Of a stretch of DNA of 9,136 bases, positions 1,698 through 9,136 are shown piece after piece. This DNA is from a virus. Taxonomy: Duplodnaviria > Heunggongvirae > Uroviricota > Caudoviricetes. Every line of letters begins with the position of its first letter. The stretch's first letter is position 1. The stretch lies in IMG/VR virus record IMGVR_UViG_2698536549_000013, one strand, 5' to 3'. A program made the translations under genes and the position numbers. Below the pieces are notes generated by a model. It did not search any database. It saw nothing but the letters and a program-made list of their open reading frames with translations, and was not told the origin of the DNA.

Positions 1698-2038
1698 CGG
1701 AGGCGGATTTGTATCCTCATCTGGCGCATCTTGCCGGCGGGCAGGTGTACCCGTATGTGGTCCCCCTGCTGGATGGCAGGCCGTCGGTAGCGCTTCCGTG
1801 GGTGGTTTTCAGCCTGATTTCATCGGTGTCTGCGGACGTGATGGGCGGGCAGGCGGAGTCCTCAGTGGCGGTGCAGATAGACGTTTATGCCGGGACTGTG
1901 ACGCAGGCGCGTCAGATACGTCAGGACGCCCGTGAAGCCATAATGCTGCTGGCCCCGGGATCCGTCAGTGAAATGCAGGACTATATTCCGGAAAACCGCT
2001 GTTACCGTGCAACCCTGGAGTTTCAGGTCACGGTGTGA
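1694..2038 (+). CDS. Tail terminator / tail completion protein (DUF3168-like)
   Basis: 114-aa ORF immediately upstream of the major tail protein gene; start ATG 1694 overlaps the upstream stop (ATGA). Small size and position are typical of siphovirus tail terminator proteins. Confidence 0.6.
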   Translation: MTEADLYPHLAHLAGGQVYPYVVPLLDGRPSVALPWVVFSLISSVSADVMGGQAESSVAVQIDVYAGTVTQARQIRQDAREAIMLLAPGSVSEMQDYIPENRCYRATLEFQVTV

Positions 2039-2066
2039 CTTTTTCTTTTTTCTACAAAACCCATAC

Positions 2067-2087
2067 CCCGCCGCGTGCGGGTTTTTT
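2067..2087 (+). terminator. Short GC hairpin followed by T6 (possible attenuator or weak intrinsic terminator) upstream of the major tail gene
   Basis: CCCGC (2067-2071) pairs with GCGGG (2077-2081), loop CGCGT, followed by TTTTTT (2082-2087). Stem is only 5 bp. Confidence 0.3.
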
Positions 2088-2103: not shown

Positions 2104-2820
2104 ATGTCTGCTTTGTATGAACGCTCACAGCTGACGCAGGTGATGATTTCATCTGCCCCGGCGACTGCTGAAACTATGGATAAGGCGGAATATCTGCGCC
2201 TGGACTGCACCATCAAGGAAGTCCAGTTCACCGCCGGTCAGAAACAGGATATTGATGTGACCACGCTCTGCTCCACAGAGCAGGAGAATATCAACGGTCT
2301 GGGGGCGTCGTCTGAGATTTCCATGTCGGGTAATTTTTATCTGAATCAGGCCCAGAACGCCCTGCGTGATGCCTATGACAATGACGCGTTGTATGCGTTT
2401 AAGGTGCTGTTTCCGTCCGGTAAGGGCTTTAAATTCCTGGCGGAAGTGCGCCAGCACACCTGGTCATCCGGTACCAACGGCGTGGTGGCTGCAACGTTCT
2501 CACTGCGTCTGAAAGGCAAACCGGTGTCCTTTGTGGTACCGCTGGCGTTTGTGAAAAATCTGGATAAGACACTTACCGTGAATACCGGTGCGCTGCTGAC
2601 AATGTCAGTCAGTGCCAACGGGGGAACGCCGCCGTATAAATACGCCTGGAAGAAGGATGGTCAGCCGGTTGACGGGCAGACGACAGACACCTTCAGTAAG
2701 CCAGGTGCGCAGTCCGCCGATGCGGGGAAATATACCTGCGTGGTGACCGATTCGGCAGAGAAAGCACAGAGTGTGACGTCTGTTGAATGCACCGTGACAG
2801 TGAGCGCAGCCGCCGGATAA
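2104..2820 (+). CDS. Major tail (tube) protein with C-terminal Ig-like (Big_2-type) domain
   Basis: 238-aa ORF from ATG 2104, preceded by AGGAGG (2094-2099); the 2035 start in the ORF track lacks an RBS and would overlap the hairpin. C-terminal ~80 aa ('TLTVNTGALLTMSVSANGGTPPYKYAWKKDGQPVDG...AGKYTCVVTDSAEK...') has the Y-x-C pattern of Ig-like domains also found at the C-terminus of lambda gpV. Sits immediately upstream of the chaperone/tape-measure genes. Confidence 0.8.
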   Translation: MSALYERSQLTQVMISSAPATAETMDKAEYLRLDCTIKEVQFTAGQKQDIDVTTLCSTEQENINGLGASSEISMSGNFYLNQAQNALRDAYDNDALYAFKVLFPSGKGFKFLAEVRQHTWSSGTNGVVAATFSLRLKGKPVSFVVPLAFVKNLDKTLTVNTGALLTMSVSANGGTPPYKYAWKKDGQPVDGQTTDTFSKPGAQSADAGKYTCVVTDSAEKAQSVTSVECTVTVSAAAG

Positions 2821-2834
2821 GGGGATGGGTCATC

Positions 2835-3209
2835 ATGAAAAAGGATCTGAAAACGCTGGCGCTGGCCAGACTGTCAGGGTTTCGTCATAAAACGGTGAAG
2901 GTGCCGGAATGGGGTAATGTCAGCGTGGTGCTGCGGGAGCCTTCGGCAGAGGCCTGGTATCTGTGGCAGGACGTGCTCAATGGTGATGGAGAGGATGACG
3001 ATACTCTGTCGGTGGTGGCGAAAACCCGCCGTAACCTGGAAGCGGATGTGACGCTGTTCTGCGATGTCCTGTGTGATACGGATCTGCAACGGGTGTTCAC
3101 TCCGGACGACCGTGAGCAGGTGCTGGCCGTCTATGGTCCGGTACATGCCCGCTTGCTGCGTCAGGCACTGGAACTGATCGCTGATGCAGAGTCGGTCAGA
3201 AAAAAGTAG
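2835..3209 (+). CDS. Tail assembly chaperone (G-like)
   Basis: 124-aa ORF from ATG 2835 with a GGGGA RBS-like purine run upstream, lying between the major tail and tape measure genes. Ends ...RKK-stop, with the slippery heptamer A_AAA_AAG (3200-3206) just before stop TAG 3207-3209. Confidence 0.75.
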   Translation: MKKDLKTLALARLSGFRHKTVKVPEWGNVSVVLREPSAEAWYLWQDVLNGDGEDDDTLSVVAKTRRNLEADVTLFCDVLCDTDLQRVFTPDDREQVLAVYGPVHARLLRQALELIADAESVRKK

Positions 3210-3514
3210 CCCGCCCGGAAATTCGCTTTCTGATGCGACTTGCGCTCCGTCTGGGGCGCACCTTATCCGAACTGCGGCACAGCCTGAGTGCGAGCGAGGC
3301 GATGATGTGGATGGAGTTCGACAGGATATCCCCGCTGGGTGATGAGCGCGGGGATATCCGTAATGCACAGATCGTGAAAGCGGTTTTCGGGGCACAGGGG
3401 ATGAATGTTGCACTGAAGGACGCCATGCTCTGCTGGGGCGAGGATGAGGATAAGCCGGAGGTGGATCCGTTTGCGGCGCTGGAAGACGCGCTGAGCCTTG
3501 CAGCACAGTCATGA
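2835..3514 (+). CDS. Tail assembly chaperone G-T fusion, produced by programmed -1 ribosomal frameshift
   Basis: The -1 frame relative to G is open from stop 3182-3184 through the slippery site to TGA 3512-3514 (includes ORF 3233-3514). A -1 slip at A_AAA_AAG joins ...VRKK to VARPEIRFLMRLALRL... The T-like extension has no convincing independent start or RBS. Confidence 0.65.
3200..3206 (+). other. Slippery heptamer A_AAA_AAG for -1 programmed frameshift (G to G-T)
   Basis: X_XXY_YYZ heptamer in the G frame (AAA 3201-3203, AAG 3204-3206), three nt before the G stop; the downstream -1 frame is open. Confidence 0.65.
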
Positions 3515-3522
3515 ATGATGAG

Positions 3523-3543
3523 AACCGCTGAGGCGGTTTTTTT
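3523..3543 (+). terminator. Intrinsic-terminator-like hairpin between the G-T and tape measure genes
   Basis: AACCGC (3523-3528) pairs with GCGGTT (3533-3538), loop TGAG, followed by a T-run through 3543. Located 9 nt after the T stop and just upstream of the tape measure RBS. Confidence 0.4.
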
Positions 3544-3561
3544 ACGCCAGGAGAAAGGTGA

Positions 3562-6500
3562 ATGGCGACGTTACGTGAACTGATTATCAAAATTTCGGCA
3601 AATTCACAGTCATTCCAGTCGGAGATCCAGCGGGCGTCCCGTATGGGCAGTGAATATTACCGGACCCTGCAGAATGGCGGACGTCAGGCTGCTGCGGCAG
3701 CCAGGGAGCAGTGCCGGGCTCTGGCTGAGCTGAACAGCCAGTTGACGGAAATCCGCGCTTCGGCTGTCGGAATGACCAGTGCGTTTGCCGGTGCCTTTGC
3801 CACCGGACACCTGATTTCGCTGGCAGATGAATGGAGCTCCGTGAATGCCCGTCTGAAACAGGCGTCGCAGTCATCGGATGAATTTGCGTTATCACAGAAA
3901 GTGCTGATGGACATCAGCCAGCGGACAGGCACCGCATTTTCGGATAATGCGACCCTGTTTGCCCGTTCGGCTGCCTCGATGCGTGAATATGGTTACAGTG
4001 CTGATGATGTGCTGAAGGTGACGGAGGCCATTTCGACAGGGCTGAAAATTTCCGGTGCCAGTGCGGCAGAGGCGGGTTCGGTGATCACCCAGTTCAGCCA
4101 GGCGCTGGCACAGGGGGTGTTGCGCGGCGAGGAATTTAATTCGGTCAATGAAAGTGGGGACCGGATCATTCGCGCACTGGCTGCAGGCATGGGCGTGGCC
4201 CGTAAGGATCTGAAGGCGATGGCGGACGATGGTCAACTGACGGCGGATAAAGTCGTTCCCGCGTTAATCAGCCAGCTGGGGATATTGCGTGATGAATATG
4301 CAGCCATGCCGGAAACGGTGTCTGACGGGATCACGAAGGTGGAAAACGCCTTTATGGCCTGGGTGGGCGGCGCGAATGAGGCCAGCGGAGCGACGAAAAC
4401 GCTCTCCGGCGCACTGAACGGTGTGGCCGGAAATATTGATACCGTGGCAACAGCTGCGGGTGTGCTGGTTGCTGTCGGGGTGGCCCGGTACTTTGGTAAT
4501 CTGGCTTCCGGAGCGATGTCTGCCACGGCAGGACTTGTGACCGCTGCACGTAATGAAGTGGCACTGGCTGAGGCCCAGTTAAGGGGAACGCAGATTGCCA
4601 CGGCGCGGGCAAGGGCAGCCGTGTACCGGGCTCAGCAGGCTGTGGCGGCAGCCCGCGGGACTGAGATGCAGATTGCGGCAGAGGCCCGTCTGGCGGTCAC
4701 ACAGGAACGCCTGAACAGAAATATTGCTGCCAGAACCGCCGCCCAGAATGCGCTGAACAGTACAACGGCGGTGGGCTCACGTCTGATGAGCGGTGCGCTG
4801 GGACTGGTTGGAGGCGTACCCGGACTGGTGATGCTGGGAGCTGCCGCATGGTACACGCTGTACCAGAATCAGGAGCAGGCCAGGGAGTCTGCGCGCCAGT
4901 ATGCACTGACGATTGATGAAATCGCGCATAAAACGCCATCAATGTCTCTGCCTGAAGCCTCAGATAATGAAGGGCGAACACGGGAGGCGCTGACAGAGCA
5001 GAACCGGCTGATTGATGAGCAGGCCAGCCGGGTGAAATCCCTGCAGGAAAAAATCGCCGGGTATCAGTATGTGCTGGCTAATCCGGGCTGGACGACCGGT
5101 AACGGCTTCATGATAAACCATCTGACATCGGTGAAAACTGTAACGGAAGAGCTTGCTCAGGCAACAGAGCAGTTTGCTGTTGAGCAGTCCCGTCTGGCAC
5201 AGATGCAGGAAAAAGCGCAGTCCATTCAGGATGTGCTTGCCGGACTGGAAGAGCGCCGTGTTGTGTTAATTCGTCAGCAGGCAGCAGAGCAGAATAAAGC
5301 GTATCAGTCACTGCTGGTCATGAACGGTCAGCATACGGAATTCAACCGCCTGCTGGGGCTGGGTAATGAACTGCTGCAACAGCGTCAGGGACTGGCGAGT
5401 GTACCGCTGCGACTGCCACAGGCCACTCTGGATGATAAACAGCAGAGCGCCCTGAATAACACAGAGCGTCAACTGGCCCTGTCCCGGCTGAAAGGGGAAG
5501 AAAAAGAGCGTGCCCGGCTGGGGTATGCGGCGGATGACCTTGGTCTGGTGGGGGATACGTATCAGGAGGCGAGGCAGCGTTACATCCGTAATTCGATGGA
5601 AGCCTGGCGCAATAATGAGGCGAATAAACCCAAATCCCGGGCCGGAAAATCAGGGGCGGAAAAAGCGGAAGACAGTTTTTCCCGTCTGCTGAAGCAGCAG
5701 AAGGAACAACTGGCACTGGCCGGGAAGAATACAGAACTGGCAAAACTGAAATACCAGACCTCGCAGGGCGAGCTGAAAACCCTGACGGAGATACAGAAGC
5801 AGGAGCTGCTGCGCAATGCTGCCCTGATTGACCAGAAGAAAATCCGGGAGCAGTTACGGGCCCGGGAGGAGACCCTGAAAAATGATAATGCAGACGCAAG
5901 GGCATCAAATGACGCTGAGCTGCTGGGGTACGGGCAGGGTGAGCGGGTCCGTGAACGGATGCGGGAGCTGCAGCAGATTCGTGACGGCTACCGCCAGAAG
6001 GATGCGGACCTGCAGTCTCAGTATCAGACAGGGGATATCAGTGAGGATTTTTACAGACAGGCGCTGGCGCAGAATGCGCAGTATCTGAGTGAACGCCTTA
6101 AAGACCAGGAGGCTTTTTATGCCGAATCGGATGCGCAGCGTGCTGACTGGCAGAAAGGGCTGCAGGAAGGGCTAAGTAACTGGGTGGACAGCGCATCAGA
6201 TTACGCTTCACAGGCAGCACAGCTTGCGACAGACGGTATCTCAGGGATGGTGAATAACATCACGGAGATGCTGAACGGAAATAAAGTGGAATGGCGCAGC
6301 TGGGCTGCATCAATCCTGCAGGAAATATCAAAAGTTCTTATGAATGCGGCCATTGTCAACGGCATTAAGATGGCGGCAAACAGTATGTCCGGTGCAGGAG
6401 GATTTTTCGGCAGTATAGGCAACTGGCTGGGTGGCGCGGTGGCAAATGCAAAAGGCGGCGTTTATACCTCGGCAAACCTGAGTGCATACAGTAACAGTAT

Positions 6501-6804
6501 TGTGGACACGCCCACGTACTTTGCCTTTGCAAAAGGGGCAGGGCTGATGGGGGAGGCCGGACCTGAAGCCATCATGCCCCTGACCCGGGCAGCGGATGGT
6601 TCACTCGGCGTGCGTGCGGTGGGCAGTATGAACGGCAGTGCGGGTCTGGTGTATTCCCCGGTGTACCACATCGCCATTCAGAATGACGGCGCTAACGGGC
6701 AGATAGGGCCGGAAGCGGCGGGCACCCTTGTGCAACTGATTGACCAGCGGGTACAGGCGGTGATGTTATCCATGCGTCGTGACGGAGGAATGCTGAGTGG
6801 ATGA
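3562..6804 (+). CDS. Tail tape measure protein (lambda H-like role)
   Basis: 1080-aa ORF with RBS AGGAGAAAGG (3549-3558). Position after the frameshifted chaperones is diagnostic. Long Ala/Gln/Glu/Arg-rich predicted coiled-coil centre, two hydrophobic Gly/Ala-rich segments (~4430-4550 and ~4780-4860) and a Gly-rich C-terminus are typical of tape measure proteins. Confidence 0.9.
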   Translation: MATLRELIIKISANSQSFQSEIQRASRMGSEYYRTLQNGGRQAAAAAREQCRALAELNSQLTEIRASAVGMTSAFAGAFATGHLISLADEWSSVNARLKQASQSSDEFALSQKVLMDISQRTGTAFSDNATLFARSAASMREYGYSADDVLKVTEAISTGLKISGASAAEAGSVITQFSQALAQGVLRGEEFNSVNESGDRIIRALAAGMGVARKDLKAMADDGQLTADKVVPALISQLGILRDEYAAMPETVSDGITKVENAFMAWVGGANEASGATKTLSGALNGVAGNIDTVATAAGVLVAVGVARYFGNLASGAMSATAGLVTAARNEVALAEAQLRGTQIATARARAAVYRAQQAVAAARGTEMQIAAEARLAVTQERLNRNIAARTAAQNALNSTTAVGSRLMSGALGLVGGVPGLVMLGAAAWYTLYQNQEQARESARQYALTIDEIAHKTPSMSLPEASDNEGRTREALTEQNRLIDEQASRVKSLQEKIAGYQYVLANPGWTTGNGFMINHLTSVKTVTEELAQATEQFAVEQSRLAQMQEKAQSIQDVLAGLEERRVVLIRQQAAEQNKAYQSLLVMNGQHTEFNRLLGLGNELLQQRQGLASVPLRLPQATLDDKQQSALNNTERQLALSRLKGEEKERARLGYAADDLGLVGDTYQEARQRYIRNSMEAWRNNEANKPKSRAGKSGAEKAEDSFSRLLKQQKEQLALAGKNTELAKLKYQTSQGELKTLTEIQKQELLRNAALIDQKKIREQLRAREETLKNDNADARASNDAELLGYGQGERVRERMRELQQIRDGYRQKDADLQSQYQTGDISEDFYRQALAQNAQYLSERLKDQEAFYAESDAQRADWQKGLQEGLSNWVDSASDYASQAAQLATDGISGMVNNITEMLNGNKVEWRSWAASILQEISKVLMNAAIVNGIKMAANSMSGAGGFFGSIGNWLGGAVANAKGGVYTSANLSAYSNSIVDTPTYFAFAKGAGLMGEAGPEAIMPLTRAADGSLGVRAVGSMNGSAGLVYSPVYHIAIQNDGANGQIGPEAAGTLVQLIDQRVQAVMLSMRRDGGMLSG

Positions 6805-7138
6805 GATTAAGACTCTTCACTGGTGTCCCCGGGAAGGGATGCAGGTGACGGAGAAACCGTCGGTGATGACGGTGAAGTTTGGCGACGGTTATCAGCAGCG
6901 TCGTCCGGCAGGACTGAATGCGCAACTGAAGACCTTTCAGGTGGTTTTTCGGGTGACAACGGATGCTGAGCGGGAGGCACTGTCCGCGTTTCTGTCATGG
7001 CATGGTGGTTACCGGGCTTTTTTGTGGAAGCCCCCGAAACATAACCGGACGGTCAGGGTGGTGTGCCGGGAGTGGAGTATTACGGATAACGCCCGGTACA
7101 GTGATTTCAGTTGCACGATAGAGCAGGTAGTTAGATGA
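6797..7138 (+). CDS. M: Minor tail protein M (lambda gpM family)
   Basis: 113-aa ORF starting at GTG 6797 with GGAGG (6784-6788) upstream, overlapping the tape measure stop (6802-6804). Recalled lambda gpM shares motifs ('...KFGDGYQQR.PAGLNA.LKT...', '...HGG...FLW.PP...') and the position directly after the tape measure gene. Confidence 0.8.
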   Translation: MDEIKTLHWCPREGMQVTEKPSVMTVKFGDGYQQRRPAGLNAQLKTFQVVFRVTTDAEREALSAFLSWHGGYRAFLWKPPKHNRTVRVVCREWSITDNARYSDFSCTIEQVVR

Positions 7139-7218
7139 GAATTATCCTATAAATCATTCTTTAGTGTTTAGTTGTTAATTATTTTTAATCTGTCTTGTCA
7201 GAAAGTGCGAAATCGATC

Positions 7219-7248
7219 TTGCATTTACATTTTGTTACATAATATAAA
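7219..7248 (+). promoter_or_regulatory. Candidate sigma70 promoter and OmpR-box-like element upstream of the porin gene
   Basis: TTGCAT (7219-7224) is a -35-like hexamer, with ATATAA/TATAAA (7242-7248) 17-18 bp downstream. Embedded ATTTACATTTTGTTACATAA (7223-7242) resembles the tandem 10-bp OmpR half-sites of ompC/ompF promoters as recalled. Lies in the AT-rich leader ~90-115 nt upstream of ATG 7337. Confidence 0.35.
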
Positions 7249-7336
7249 TTGAACTAAGAATTTGTATTAAAATATTTTAATTTTTGTTCATGACATCTGA
7301 ATGCATGAATAGTTCAGTTTAAATAAGGATTAAATC

Positions 7337-8491
7337 ATGAAAAAAATGACAGTGGCACTTTCTGCTGTAGCAGTGGCAGTGATGTTTGCTGCGGGGGCGC
7401 AGGCAGCAGAAGTTTATAATAAAGATGGTAATAAACTGGATCTTTACGGGCGTGCAACCGCTCTGCATTACTTCTCGGATGATAAAGGTAATGACGGAGA
7501 CCAGACTTATGCTCGTCTCGGCTTTAAAGGCGAAACGCAGATTAATGATCAACTGACCGGATTTGGTCAGTGGGAATACCAGTTCTCTGGTAATAAAACG
7601 GAATCTGAAGGTTCCGCGGGAAATAAAACCCGTCTGGCATTTGCAGGTCTGAGATTTGCAGATGTTGGTACCATTGATTACGGACGTAACTATGGTATTG
7701 CTTACGATGTCGGATCATATACTGACGTACTGCCTGAGTTTGGTGGTGATGGCTGGACGCAGACCGATAACTTTATGACGGCCCGAACTTCCGGTGTCCT
7801 GACTTACCGTAATACAGACTTCTTCGGACTGGTTGATGGTCTGAATTTTGCGGCGCAGTATCAGGGCAAAAATGAGCGTGATGACCTTCAGAAGGCTAAT
7901 GGCGACGGGTATGGTTTCTCGGCCAGCTATGAGTTTGATGGTTTTGGTTTTGTCGCTGCGTATACCAAGTCAGATCGTACTGATAAGCAGGTTCAGGGGT
8001 TGAATGGTACTGCAGATGTTCTTGATCCTGCATCAGGTAAAAAGGTTGGAGAAAAAGCAGTTGACTCAGGTAGTGTGGCAAAAGGTAAACATGCTGAATT
8101 CTGGGGAACTGGTCTTAAATATGATGCCAATAACCTGTATCTGGCAGCAGTGTATTCTGAAACCCAGAATATGACGACCTTTGGTGATCAAGGTGTTGCG
8201 GATAAAGCTCAGAATATCGAAGCCGTTGTTCAGTATCAGTTTGATTTTGGTCTGCGCCCGTCCCTTGCCTACCTTCAGTCCCGCGGACAGGATGTTATGG
8301 TTGGTGGTGTGAACCATGGCGATCAGGATCTGGTTAAATATATTGATGTCGGTGCGACTTATTACTTTAACAAGAATATGTCCACCTATGTTGATTATAA
8401 AATTAACCTGATTGATGAAAGTGAATTTACCCGGAAAGCCGGTGTTGCGACAGATAATATCGTTGCTGTGGGTATGACTTATCAGTTCTGA
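7337..8491 (+). CDS. General diffusion porin, OmpC/NmpC/OmpD/Lc family (phage-borne moron)
   Basis: 384-aa ORF with RBS AAGGA (7324-7328). Signal peptide [23 protein letters not shown] cleaved before [15 protein letters not shown], the mature N-terminus shared with enterobacterial OmpC/NmpC as recalled. Conserved PEFGGD constriction-loop motif and C-terminal ...VAVGMTYQF ending in Phe. Set in AT-rich DNA unlike the flanking tail genes. Confidence 0.9.
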
Positions 8492-8664
8492 TTATTGCTG
8501 ATAAGTTAATAAATACGGGCCGTCTGCCCTTACAGGCGGCCTGTATCAATGAAAACACAGTTTTCATTGGTCACTGCGATCAGCAATTGCCATCTGGCAT
8601 GTGCTGATTTAACTTTCTGTTATTACCTTTATTGGTTTTATTTTAAATTGGACTTTTATTGTTC

Positions 8665-8688
8665 GGGGCGCGTCTGCGCCCCTTTTTT
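8665..8688 (+). terminator. Rho-independent terminator at the 3' boundary of the porin moron
   Basis: GGGGCGC (8665-8671) pairs with GCGCCCC (8676-8682), loop GTCT, followed by TTTTTT (8683-8688). Lies 13 nt upstream of the L start. Confidence 0.6.
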
Positions 8689-8700
8689 ATGGGCGGATAT

Positions 8701-9136
8701 ATGCAGGATATTCACGAAGAAAGCCTGAACGAGTCGGTTAAGTCAGAGCAGTCACCGCGGGTGGTGCTCTGGGAAATCGACCTNNNNNNNNNNNNNNNNN
8801 NNNNNNNNNNNNNNNNNNNNNNNNNNNNNNNNNCCCGATTGAGGGCAGCGGCTTTGAGATGAACGGAAAGGGCAGCAGTGCCCGCCCGTCGCTGACGGTG
8901 TCCAATCTTTTCGGCCTTGTCACCGGGATGGCGGAGGATTTGCAGAGCCTGGTGGGTGCCACGGTGGTCCGCCGCCGGGTGTATGCGCGTTTTCTTGATG
9001 CGGTGAACTTTGTGGCGGGGAATCCGGAGGCAGACCCGGAGCAGGAGCTGACGGACCGGTGGGTGGTGGAGCAGTTATCAGCGCTGACGGCCATGACGGC
9101 CTCGTTTGTGCTGGCGACACCGACGGAGACGGACGG
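8701..9136 (+). CDS. L: Minor tail protein L (lambda gpL family), partial: interrupted by an assembly gap and running off the window end
   Basis: N-terminus MQDIHEESLNESVKSEQSPRVVLWEIDL closely matches recalled lambda gpL (MQDIRQETLNE...VVLWEIDL). After the N-run, a different frame encodes ...GSGFEMNGKG...RPSLTVSNLFGLVTGMAEDLQSLVG.TVVRR.VYARFLDAVNFV..., again matching gpL. No stop before the window end. Confidence 0.8.
8784..8833. other. Assembly gap (run of 50 N) inside the L gene
   Basis: Exactly 50 consecutive N. The L reading frame differs on the two sides (ATG 8701 versus CCC 8834), and lambda gpL has about 31 residues between the flanking motifs, so the true gap length is not 50 nt. 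Confidence 0.95.

Follow-up and report, generated by a model that had tools for sequence, protein, structure and literature searches.

Frameshifting in tail chaperone genes has been described in phage λ, in which the genes are ordered V, G, T, H and a -1 shift near the 3' end of G leads to a G-T fusion (GT), with a G:GT ratio of 30:1 (Levin, Hendrix and Casjens 1993; Xu, Hendrix and Duda 2004, 2013, 2014, cited in PMC5009743). The arrangement can be recognised from two overlapping ORFs that separate the major tail gene from the tape measure gene (Xu, Hendrix and Duda 2004). In phage HK97, the genome record (NC_002167) contains a CDS with the note 'translated due to a -1 frameshift'. Besides phages, the E. 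coli dnaX gene (tau/gamma) frameshifts with an efficiency of about 50% on the heptamer A_AAA_AAG, which is among the most shift-prone heptamers in E. coli, the single tRNA-Lys pairing better with AAA than with AAG (PMC5009743). Finally, a cluster of 41 genes called 'phage tail assembly chaperone', similar to an HK97 protein, was predicted by Antonov et al. (2013, Nucleic Acids Res 41:6514; PMC3711429), and two cassettes of this Phage_TAC cluster were tested with a GST-MBP reporter in E. coli.

The stretch of DNA analysed here, hereafter the window, is 9,136 nucleotides long and covers the late tail-gene block of a lambdoid prophage from a Shiga-toxin-type E. coli. Its positions 2700-3700 are 100% identical to the chromosome of E. 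coli 2013C-3181. The G-T segment is 99% identical in Stx-converting phages such as 2851 and YYZ-2008, deposited as phage genomes, and about 2,900 copies of it are distributed over 1,246 of the 5,426 complete E. coli genomes, Stx-converting phages included. A first-pass annotation of the window had proposed a programmed -1 frameshift at the end of G that produces the G and G-T tail chaperones.

The genes located on the + strand 5' of the major tail gene encode the end of the portal protein, a head-tail adaptor, a head closure protein, an HK97-gp10-like protein and a gp17-like tail completion protein. They are followed by the major tail gene, G, the open T frame (3185-3514), the tape measure gene and an M-like minor tail gene (Table 1), so that two overlapping ORFs indeed stand between the major tail and tape measure genes. 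The major tail gene, which matches Pfam Ig_3 and I-set and, weakly, a tail tube family, lies directly 5' of G, in the position of λ V. The matches to three Pfam families listed in Table 1 bear out the proposal that the gene downstream of T encodes the tape measure protein. All tail ORFs of the window are intact and full length. The M-like gene begins at a GTG and shares its first 8 nt with the end of the tape measure gene (6797-6804), which suggests translational coupling of the two genes.

Table 1. Coordinates of the features of the window, with the matches or properties on which each assignment rests
Feature	Coordinates	Strand	Support
Two terminator-like hairpins with T-runs	2025-2081	+	
Major tail tube subunit, C-terminal Ig-like domain	2104..2820	+	phrog_158 (E 5.6e-116); RefSeq 'major tail subunit'
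G tail assembly chaperone, 124 aa, zero-frame product	2835..3209	+	PF06222 Phage_TAC_1 (E 3.4e-61); phrog_344
Predicted GT fusion, 226 aa	2835..3206 joined to 3206..3514	+	phrog_14766
Slippery heptamer A_AAA_AAG, -1 shift site	3200..3206	+	Sequence, phase, conservation, near-identical tested cassette
T part, -1 continuation, 102 codons + stop	3206..3514	+	PF06223 Phage_tail_T (E 2.5e-19); phrog_337
TAG stop of G, adjoining the heptamer	3207..3209	+	
'Phage tail assembly protein T' CDS, 93 aa	3233..3514	+	RefSeq annotation
8-bp GC-rich hairpin	3241-3260	+	-14.3 kcal/mol
Terminator-like hairpin	3520-3541	+	-10.8 kcal/mol, z = -1.98
Tape measure protein, 1080 aa	3562..6804	+	PF06120 (E 6.8e-89); PF20155 (E 8.9e-58); PF09718 (E 1.5e-18); phrog_339
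M-like minor tail protein	6797-7138	+	
AT-rich insert between M and L	7139-8700		
OmpC-type porin CDS, 384 aa	7337-8491	+	PF00267 (E 5.9e-144)
GC-rich T-tailed hairpin-like sequences	~8518-8540 and ~8666-8690		
Minor tail L	from 8701		
N's (about 49)	8785-8833		

The sequence AAAAAAG is directly followed by TAG on the + strand. Read from the ATG at 2835, the G frame ends GTC AGA AAA AAG TAG (V R K K stop), which phases the heptamer as A_AAA_AAG. In the -1 frame, no stop occurs between a TGA at 3182-3184 and the TGA at 3512-3514, so that this frame is open from 3185 onwards. After a -1 slip on the heptamer, the codons read would be GTA GCC CGC CCG GAA ATT CGC, giving the junction ...VRKK-VARPEIR.... 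The position and phase of the heptamer, the -1 frame open through to 3514 and the junction peptide were all as the first-pass annotation had given them; it had also placed the heptamer three nucleotides before the G stop codon, and this detail is incorrect, with zero bases separating the heptamer from TAG.

We then evaluated whether such a site could be expected by chance. A_AAA_AAG is the sole in-frame heptamer of the X_XXY_YYZ form in the whole G gene, and AAAAAAG has a single + strand occurrence in the 9136-base window (4 on both strands, against about 1 expected). It falls within the 22 nt (3185-3206) that would allow a -1 shift to connect G with T, and the probability of finding it there by chance was roughly estimated at 4e-4. 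The site thus exceeds the chance expectation.

The products of the two frames were identified by profile searches. The G protein scores 205.1 bits against PF06222 (cut-off 25), its residues 1-124 aligning on profile positions 1-124 out of 124. Its gene is preceded by a Shine-Dalgarno-like AAGGGGA (anti-SD duplex of -9.1 kcal/mol). The T-like domain announced in the -1 frame was recovered as PF06223 with 69.9 bits (cut-off 25.9), the λ T protein itself reaching 54.1 bits (E 2.1e-14) on the same profile. The sequence of the predicted fusion around the slip site is ...ESVRKK-VARPEIRF..., and a single family, phrog_14766 ('tail protein', 224 positions), spans both parts, with G at positions 2-121 and T at positions 125-224. 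No NCBIfam model matched either G or T.

Proteins in which G and T form a single ORF were also encountered in the protein database. One of them (P0003) runs straight through the slip site, another (P0001) lacks four junction residues and a third (P0002) follows the third frame for about 25 residues. Each is present on one contig and looks like an indel or a sequencing variant, and we discarded the three of them as evidence.

Judging from sequence, the true homologue of the window pair is the HK97 pair gp13/gp14, which combines the same two Pfam families, PF06222 and PF06223. The reconstructed HK97 fusion is 60% identical to the window fusion and colinear with it over the whole length, with one gap of a single residue. 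In HK97, too, the pair sits between the genes for the major tail and tape measure proteins, T is read in the -1 frame, and the slip site is 33 nt away from the LALRxGRT motif, the same distance as in the window. The two systems differ in the site itself. HK97 uses CGG_GAA_AAG, with five G codons remaining before the stop, whereas A_AAA_AAG adjoins the stop in the window.

A further difference with HK97 concerns the interval between T and the tape measure gene. In HK97 this interval contains gp15, a small gene noted as a moron product, together with a putative terminator, whereas in the window only a terminator-like hairpin (GAGAACCGC UGAG GCGGUUUUU, followed by further U's) separates the end of T (3514) from the first base of the tape measure gene (3562). 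This hairpin may represent the remnant of a moron-type insert or a landing site for one, or else a partial late-operon terminator. Two other terminator-like hairpins overlap the 3' end of the tail completion gene, a short distance before the major tail gene; the equivalent HK97 region is annotated as a putative terminator.

The resemblance to λ is of another kind. The gene order is the same, λ T and the window T belong to the same family (PF06223), and the λ A-site codon is A_AAG as in the window. With 144 aa in the -1 frame, the λ T part is the longer one, and GGGAAAG, which we found at the end of λ G in agreement with the G_GGA_AAG site quoted in the first-pass annotation, stands six codons before the stop, whereas the window heptamer abuts it. 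The G proteins are unrelated in sequence: λ G belongs to PF06894 (Phage_TAC_2), a family that the window G does not match, and BLASTP detected no similarity between the two. Pairwise BLAST is too weak a tool here, as BLASTP did not align the two T proteins either despite their shared PF06223 domain. The proposed likeness to the λ G/GT pair thus stands for the arrangement and for the T family but not for the G family, which is that of HK97 gp13. By analogy, the window G would work like λ G while lying outside its sequence family.

The heptamer is identical to that of dnaX, with the same single tRNA-Lys mechanism (PMC5009743). The dnaX site is helped by an upstream Shine-Dalgarno-like stimulator and a downstream hairpin, neither of which was found in the window, and its shifted product is the shorter one, whereas the shifted product of the window is the longer.

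Frameshifting has been measured on a sequence nearly identical to ours. Over positions 3180-3254 of the window, one of the two Phage_TAC cassettes (15618692) is identical at 74 of 75 bases; heptamer, stop and downstream sequence are all shared. The only mismatch is at 3196, two codons 5' of the heptamer, where the cassette has C (GCC, Ala) and the window T (GTC, Val). Ala is the common allele in E. coli, the corresponding protein cluster (P0004, ...ESARKK) representing 838 member sequences. In E. coli this cassette yielded 7% ± 0.79 of -1 frameshifting (PMC3711429, Table S2), a figure in which the reporter alone cannot separate ribosomal from transcriptional slippage. The second cassette, carrying G_GGA_AAG, yielded 6% (PMC3711429). 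The 7% value was obtained in a GST-MBP reporter, whereas the window site lies in its phage context; it is low, as is the frequency implied by the λ G:GT ratio, and well below that of dnaX.

To extend the comparison to distant relatives, the G homologues detected across Enterobacterales by protein search were used as follows. We aligned 28 of them and searched one-genome-per-species assemblies with the alignment, which retrieved 58 loci; a scan of genome contigs with the single GT protein as query retrieved no loci. The loci share 44-62% identity in G and belong, among other genera, to Enterobacter, Kosakonia, Klebsiella, Pectobacterium, Brenneria, Morganella, Proteus, Providencia, Xenorhabdus, Yersinia, Serratia, Pantoea and Erwinia. 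T was found in the -1 frame in 56 of the 58 loci, and an in-frame A_AAG was present within the G/T overlap in all 56. The G/GT arrangement, presented as conserved in the first-pass annotation, is indeed so. The identical heptamer A_AAA_AAG occurs in 40 of the 58 diverged loci, and since the flanking codons vary freely around it, it is kept at the nucleotide level in a diverged background.

Adding HK97 and the window to the 56 loci gives 58 sequences with T in the -1 frame. Among these, the site is A_AAA_AAG in 41 cases, GCA_AAG in 8, CGG_GAA_AAG (the HK97 type) in 7 and GAA_AAG in 2. The G stop abuts AAG in 37 of them.

The two exceptional loci both differ from the others by one A in the slip-site run (L049:1855-1870 and L053:1865-1880). 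In L049, from a Symbiopectobacterium symbiont, nine A's replace the eight of close relatives, resulting in a permanent in-frame G-T fusion; the same genome shows a second frame break elsewhere in G. In L053, from a Serratia, six A's replace the seven of relatives and T is in the +1 frame. These one-A changes indicate that the slip site is also a hotspot for mutation or sequencing error.

We next looked for elements that could stimulate the shift. A search for a downstream stimulatory structure had been recommended in the first-pass annotation, and it gave no conserved one. Folding of 3207-3296 revealed no structure at the canonical spacing of 5-9 nt downstream of the heptamer (z = -1.09), and the z-score was -1.21 for 3170-3270, neither value being significant. 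Upstream, no Shine-Dalgarno-like stimulator was evident in the window (anti-SD duplex of -4.2 kcal/mol). The dnaX combination of an SD-like element and a hairpin at 5-9 nt is consequently absent, and the heptamer alone appears sufficient.

A stable hairpin with an 8-bp GC-rich stem (UGCGCUCC GUCU GGGGCGCA) does form further downstream, within the T codons for LALRLGRT. It begins 34-35 nt 3' of the heptamer, which is too far for the canonical mechanism. Its codons GCG CTC ... GGG CGC are found in about half of the 58 diverged loci while neighbouring third positions vary, and sequences in which Lys takes the place of Arg lack the hairpin. When projected on 56 aligned relatives, 64.9% of the cells are paired but only 2 pairs change on both sides, and the covariation (0.064) does not exceed that of controls slid by -1, +2 and +3 columns (0.074, 0.142 and 0.122, respectively). 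With covariation no better than controls and presence in only half of the relatives, we rejected this hairpin as a conserved stimulator.

The only recurrent feature of the context is the abutting stop. The sequences that have it include all 10 with a non-slippery P-site codon (GCA_AAG and GAA_AAG). The adjacent stop may help frameshifting, and a specific form of this idea is that A_AAA_AAG_TAG acts as a 'shifty stop', the P-site tRNA-Lys slipping while the A site awaits the release factor; we consider this tentative and somewhat unlikely. As a weaker variant, the hairpin described above may act as a distal modulator in about half of the relatives.

Altogether, we consider it about 93% probable that the feature is a programmed -1 ribosomal frameshift of the G/GT kind, in the genes for a pair of HK97-type tail chaperones carried by a lambdoid prophage of E. 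coli. The domains, the gene order, the conservation, the HK97 homologue and the near-identical cassette all support the production of G and G-T by programmed -1 frameshifting, as first proposed. Most ribosomes would translate 2835-3206 and stop at the TAG at 3207, releasing the 124-aa G. A minority, of the order of 7% if the cassette that differs at one base is representative, would slip back by one base while tRNA-Lys decodes AAA and AAG (3201-3206), re-pairing on AAA AAA (3200-3205), and would then continue in the -1 frame with GTA GCC CGC... until the TGA at 3512-3514, yielding the 226-aa G-T.

The function of the two products can be proposed from λ. G and the G part of GT would coat the tape measure protein, while the T part would recruit the major tail subunit. 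The fixed frequency of slippage would set the G:GT ratio needed for correct tail assembly, and both proteins would be absent from the virion. Both would be required for tail assembly, judging by the λ work summarised in PMC5009743.

Three other explanations were weighed against programmed ribosomal frameshifting. The one that survives best, though quite unlikely, is that the site is a genuine G/GT signal preserved as an intact relic in a defective prophage and no longer expressed or used. The window is chromosomal prophage DNA, and a foreign porin gene has settled between the tail genes M and L, which speaks in favour of such a decay. Against it, the tail ORFs show no sign of disruption, and the 99% identity of the G-T region in phages 2851 and YYZ-2008 is found in genomes deposited as phages. 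In any case this alternative bears on the current use of the element and not on its identity.

The porin gene is carried by an AT-rich insert and is followed on its 3' side by two GC-rich T-tailed hairpin-like sequences. The insert looks like a moron within the tail operon. The full porin segment was found in 109 of the 5,426 complete E. coli genomes and in 0 records of the phage collection, and M directly adjoins L, without the insert, in most relatives. Beyond the insert, the start of the minor tail L gene contains a run of N's, either masked or unresolved.

A second alternative is that G and T are fused by transcriptional slippage, RNA polymerase adding one A in the A6 run. One added A does bring G and T in frame, and the nine A's of L049 constitute such a fusion in the DNA. 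The published reporter cannot tell transcriptional from ribosomal slippage, and the efficiency was seen to rise with poly-A length for another gene family (PMC3711429). However, the run of the window has six A's only. Efficient slippage of the E. coli RNA polymerase requires runs of about 8-9 A's or more. Moreover, 17 of the 58 -1-frame sequences (those with CGG_GAA_AAG, GCA_AAG or GAA_AAG) have no homopolymer at the site and yet display the same arrangement; such sites can only work via slippage of tRNA-Lys on A_AAG. A_AAA_AAG is also the established ribosomal shift site of dnaX (PMC5009743). Transcriptional slippage is therefore very improbable.

The last alternative follows the existing annotation. 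In the RefSeq E. coli genome and in the RefSeq record of phage 2851, T is a separate CDS starting at the ATG at 3233, which shares the -1 frame with the GT continuation. No Shine-Dalgarno sequence was found before this ATG, the anti-SD duplex over the preceding 20 nt amounting to -3.5 kcal/mol, whereas G has -9.1 and the tape measure gene -8.4. In four relatives (L032, L040, L061 and L063) there is no ATG at all between the slip site and the LALRxGxT motif. We also analyzed the stretch between the G stop and the ATG, which would be intergenic if T were a separate gene. From the slip site to LALR, 56 sequences have a constant spacing of 33 nt and two have one of 36 nt. Positions 3207-3238 show a -1-frame codon periodicity across relatives. 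At the fourth -1 codon, 42 of 43 unique sequences have Pro (column entropies 0, 0.16 and 2.00 bits); Phe is encoded throughout at the eighth, whose positions 1 and 2 are invariant. Over the whole segment, third positions have the highest entropy overall (1.34 bits versus 0.96 and 0.74). This so-called intergenic stretch is under -1-frame coding constraint.

That T is made alone as a 93-aa protein from the ATG at 3233, the heptamer being incidental, is scarcely credible: the ATG is in frame, is used in both RefSeq records and its Met is kept in 38 of 43 unique sequences, but it has no Shine-Dalgarno sequence, is missing in four relatives and is preceded by constrained codons of fixed length, independent genes do not need the -1 placement found in 56 of 58 loci with A_AAG always in the overlap, and the HK97 record describes the homologue as arising by frameshifting. 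The 93-aa T CDS is most likely not a separately initiated gene, and the advice of the first-pass annotation to describe it as part of a fusion is justified by the missing Shine-Dalgarno sequence, the four relatives without the ATG and the upstream -1 constraint.

The feature is a known and ordinary one, G/GT frameshifting being a textbook case, the HK97 homologue being so annotated and a near-identical cassette having been measured. Biologically it adds nothing new, and the gain is a corrected annotation: in these records, a ribosomal slippage join of 2835..3206 with 3206..3514 should replace the stand-alone T. The 226-aa fusion with its slippage join would describe the real product, which matters mainly for annotation. 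At the level of the family, the comparison illustrates that the A-site A_AAG is the sole universal element, and if the adjacent stop did prove to be a shifty stop, the G:GT ratio would respond to release-factor availability.
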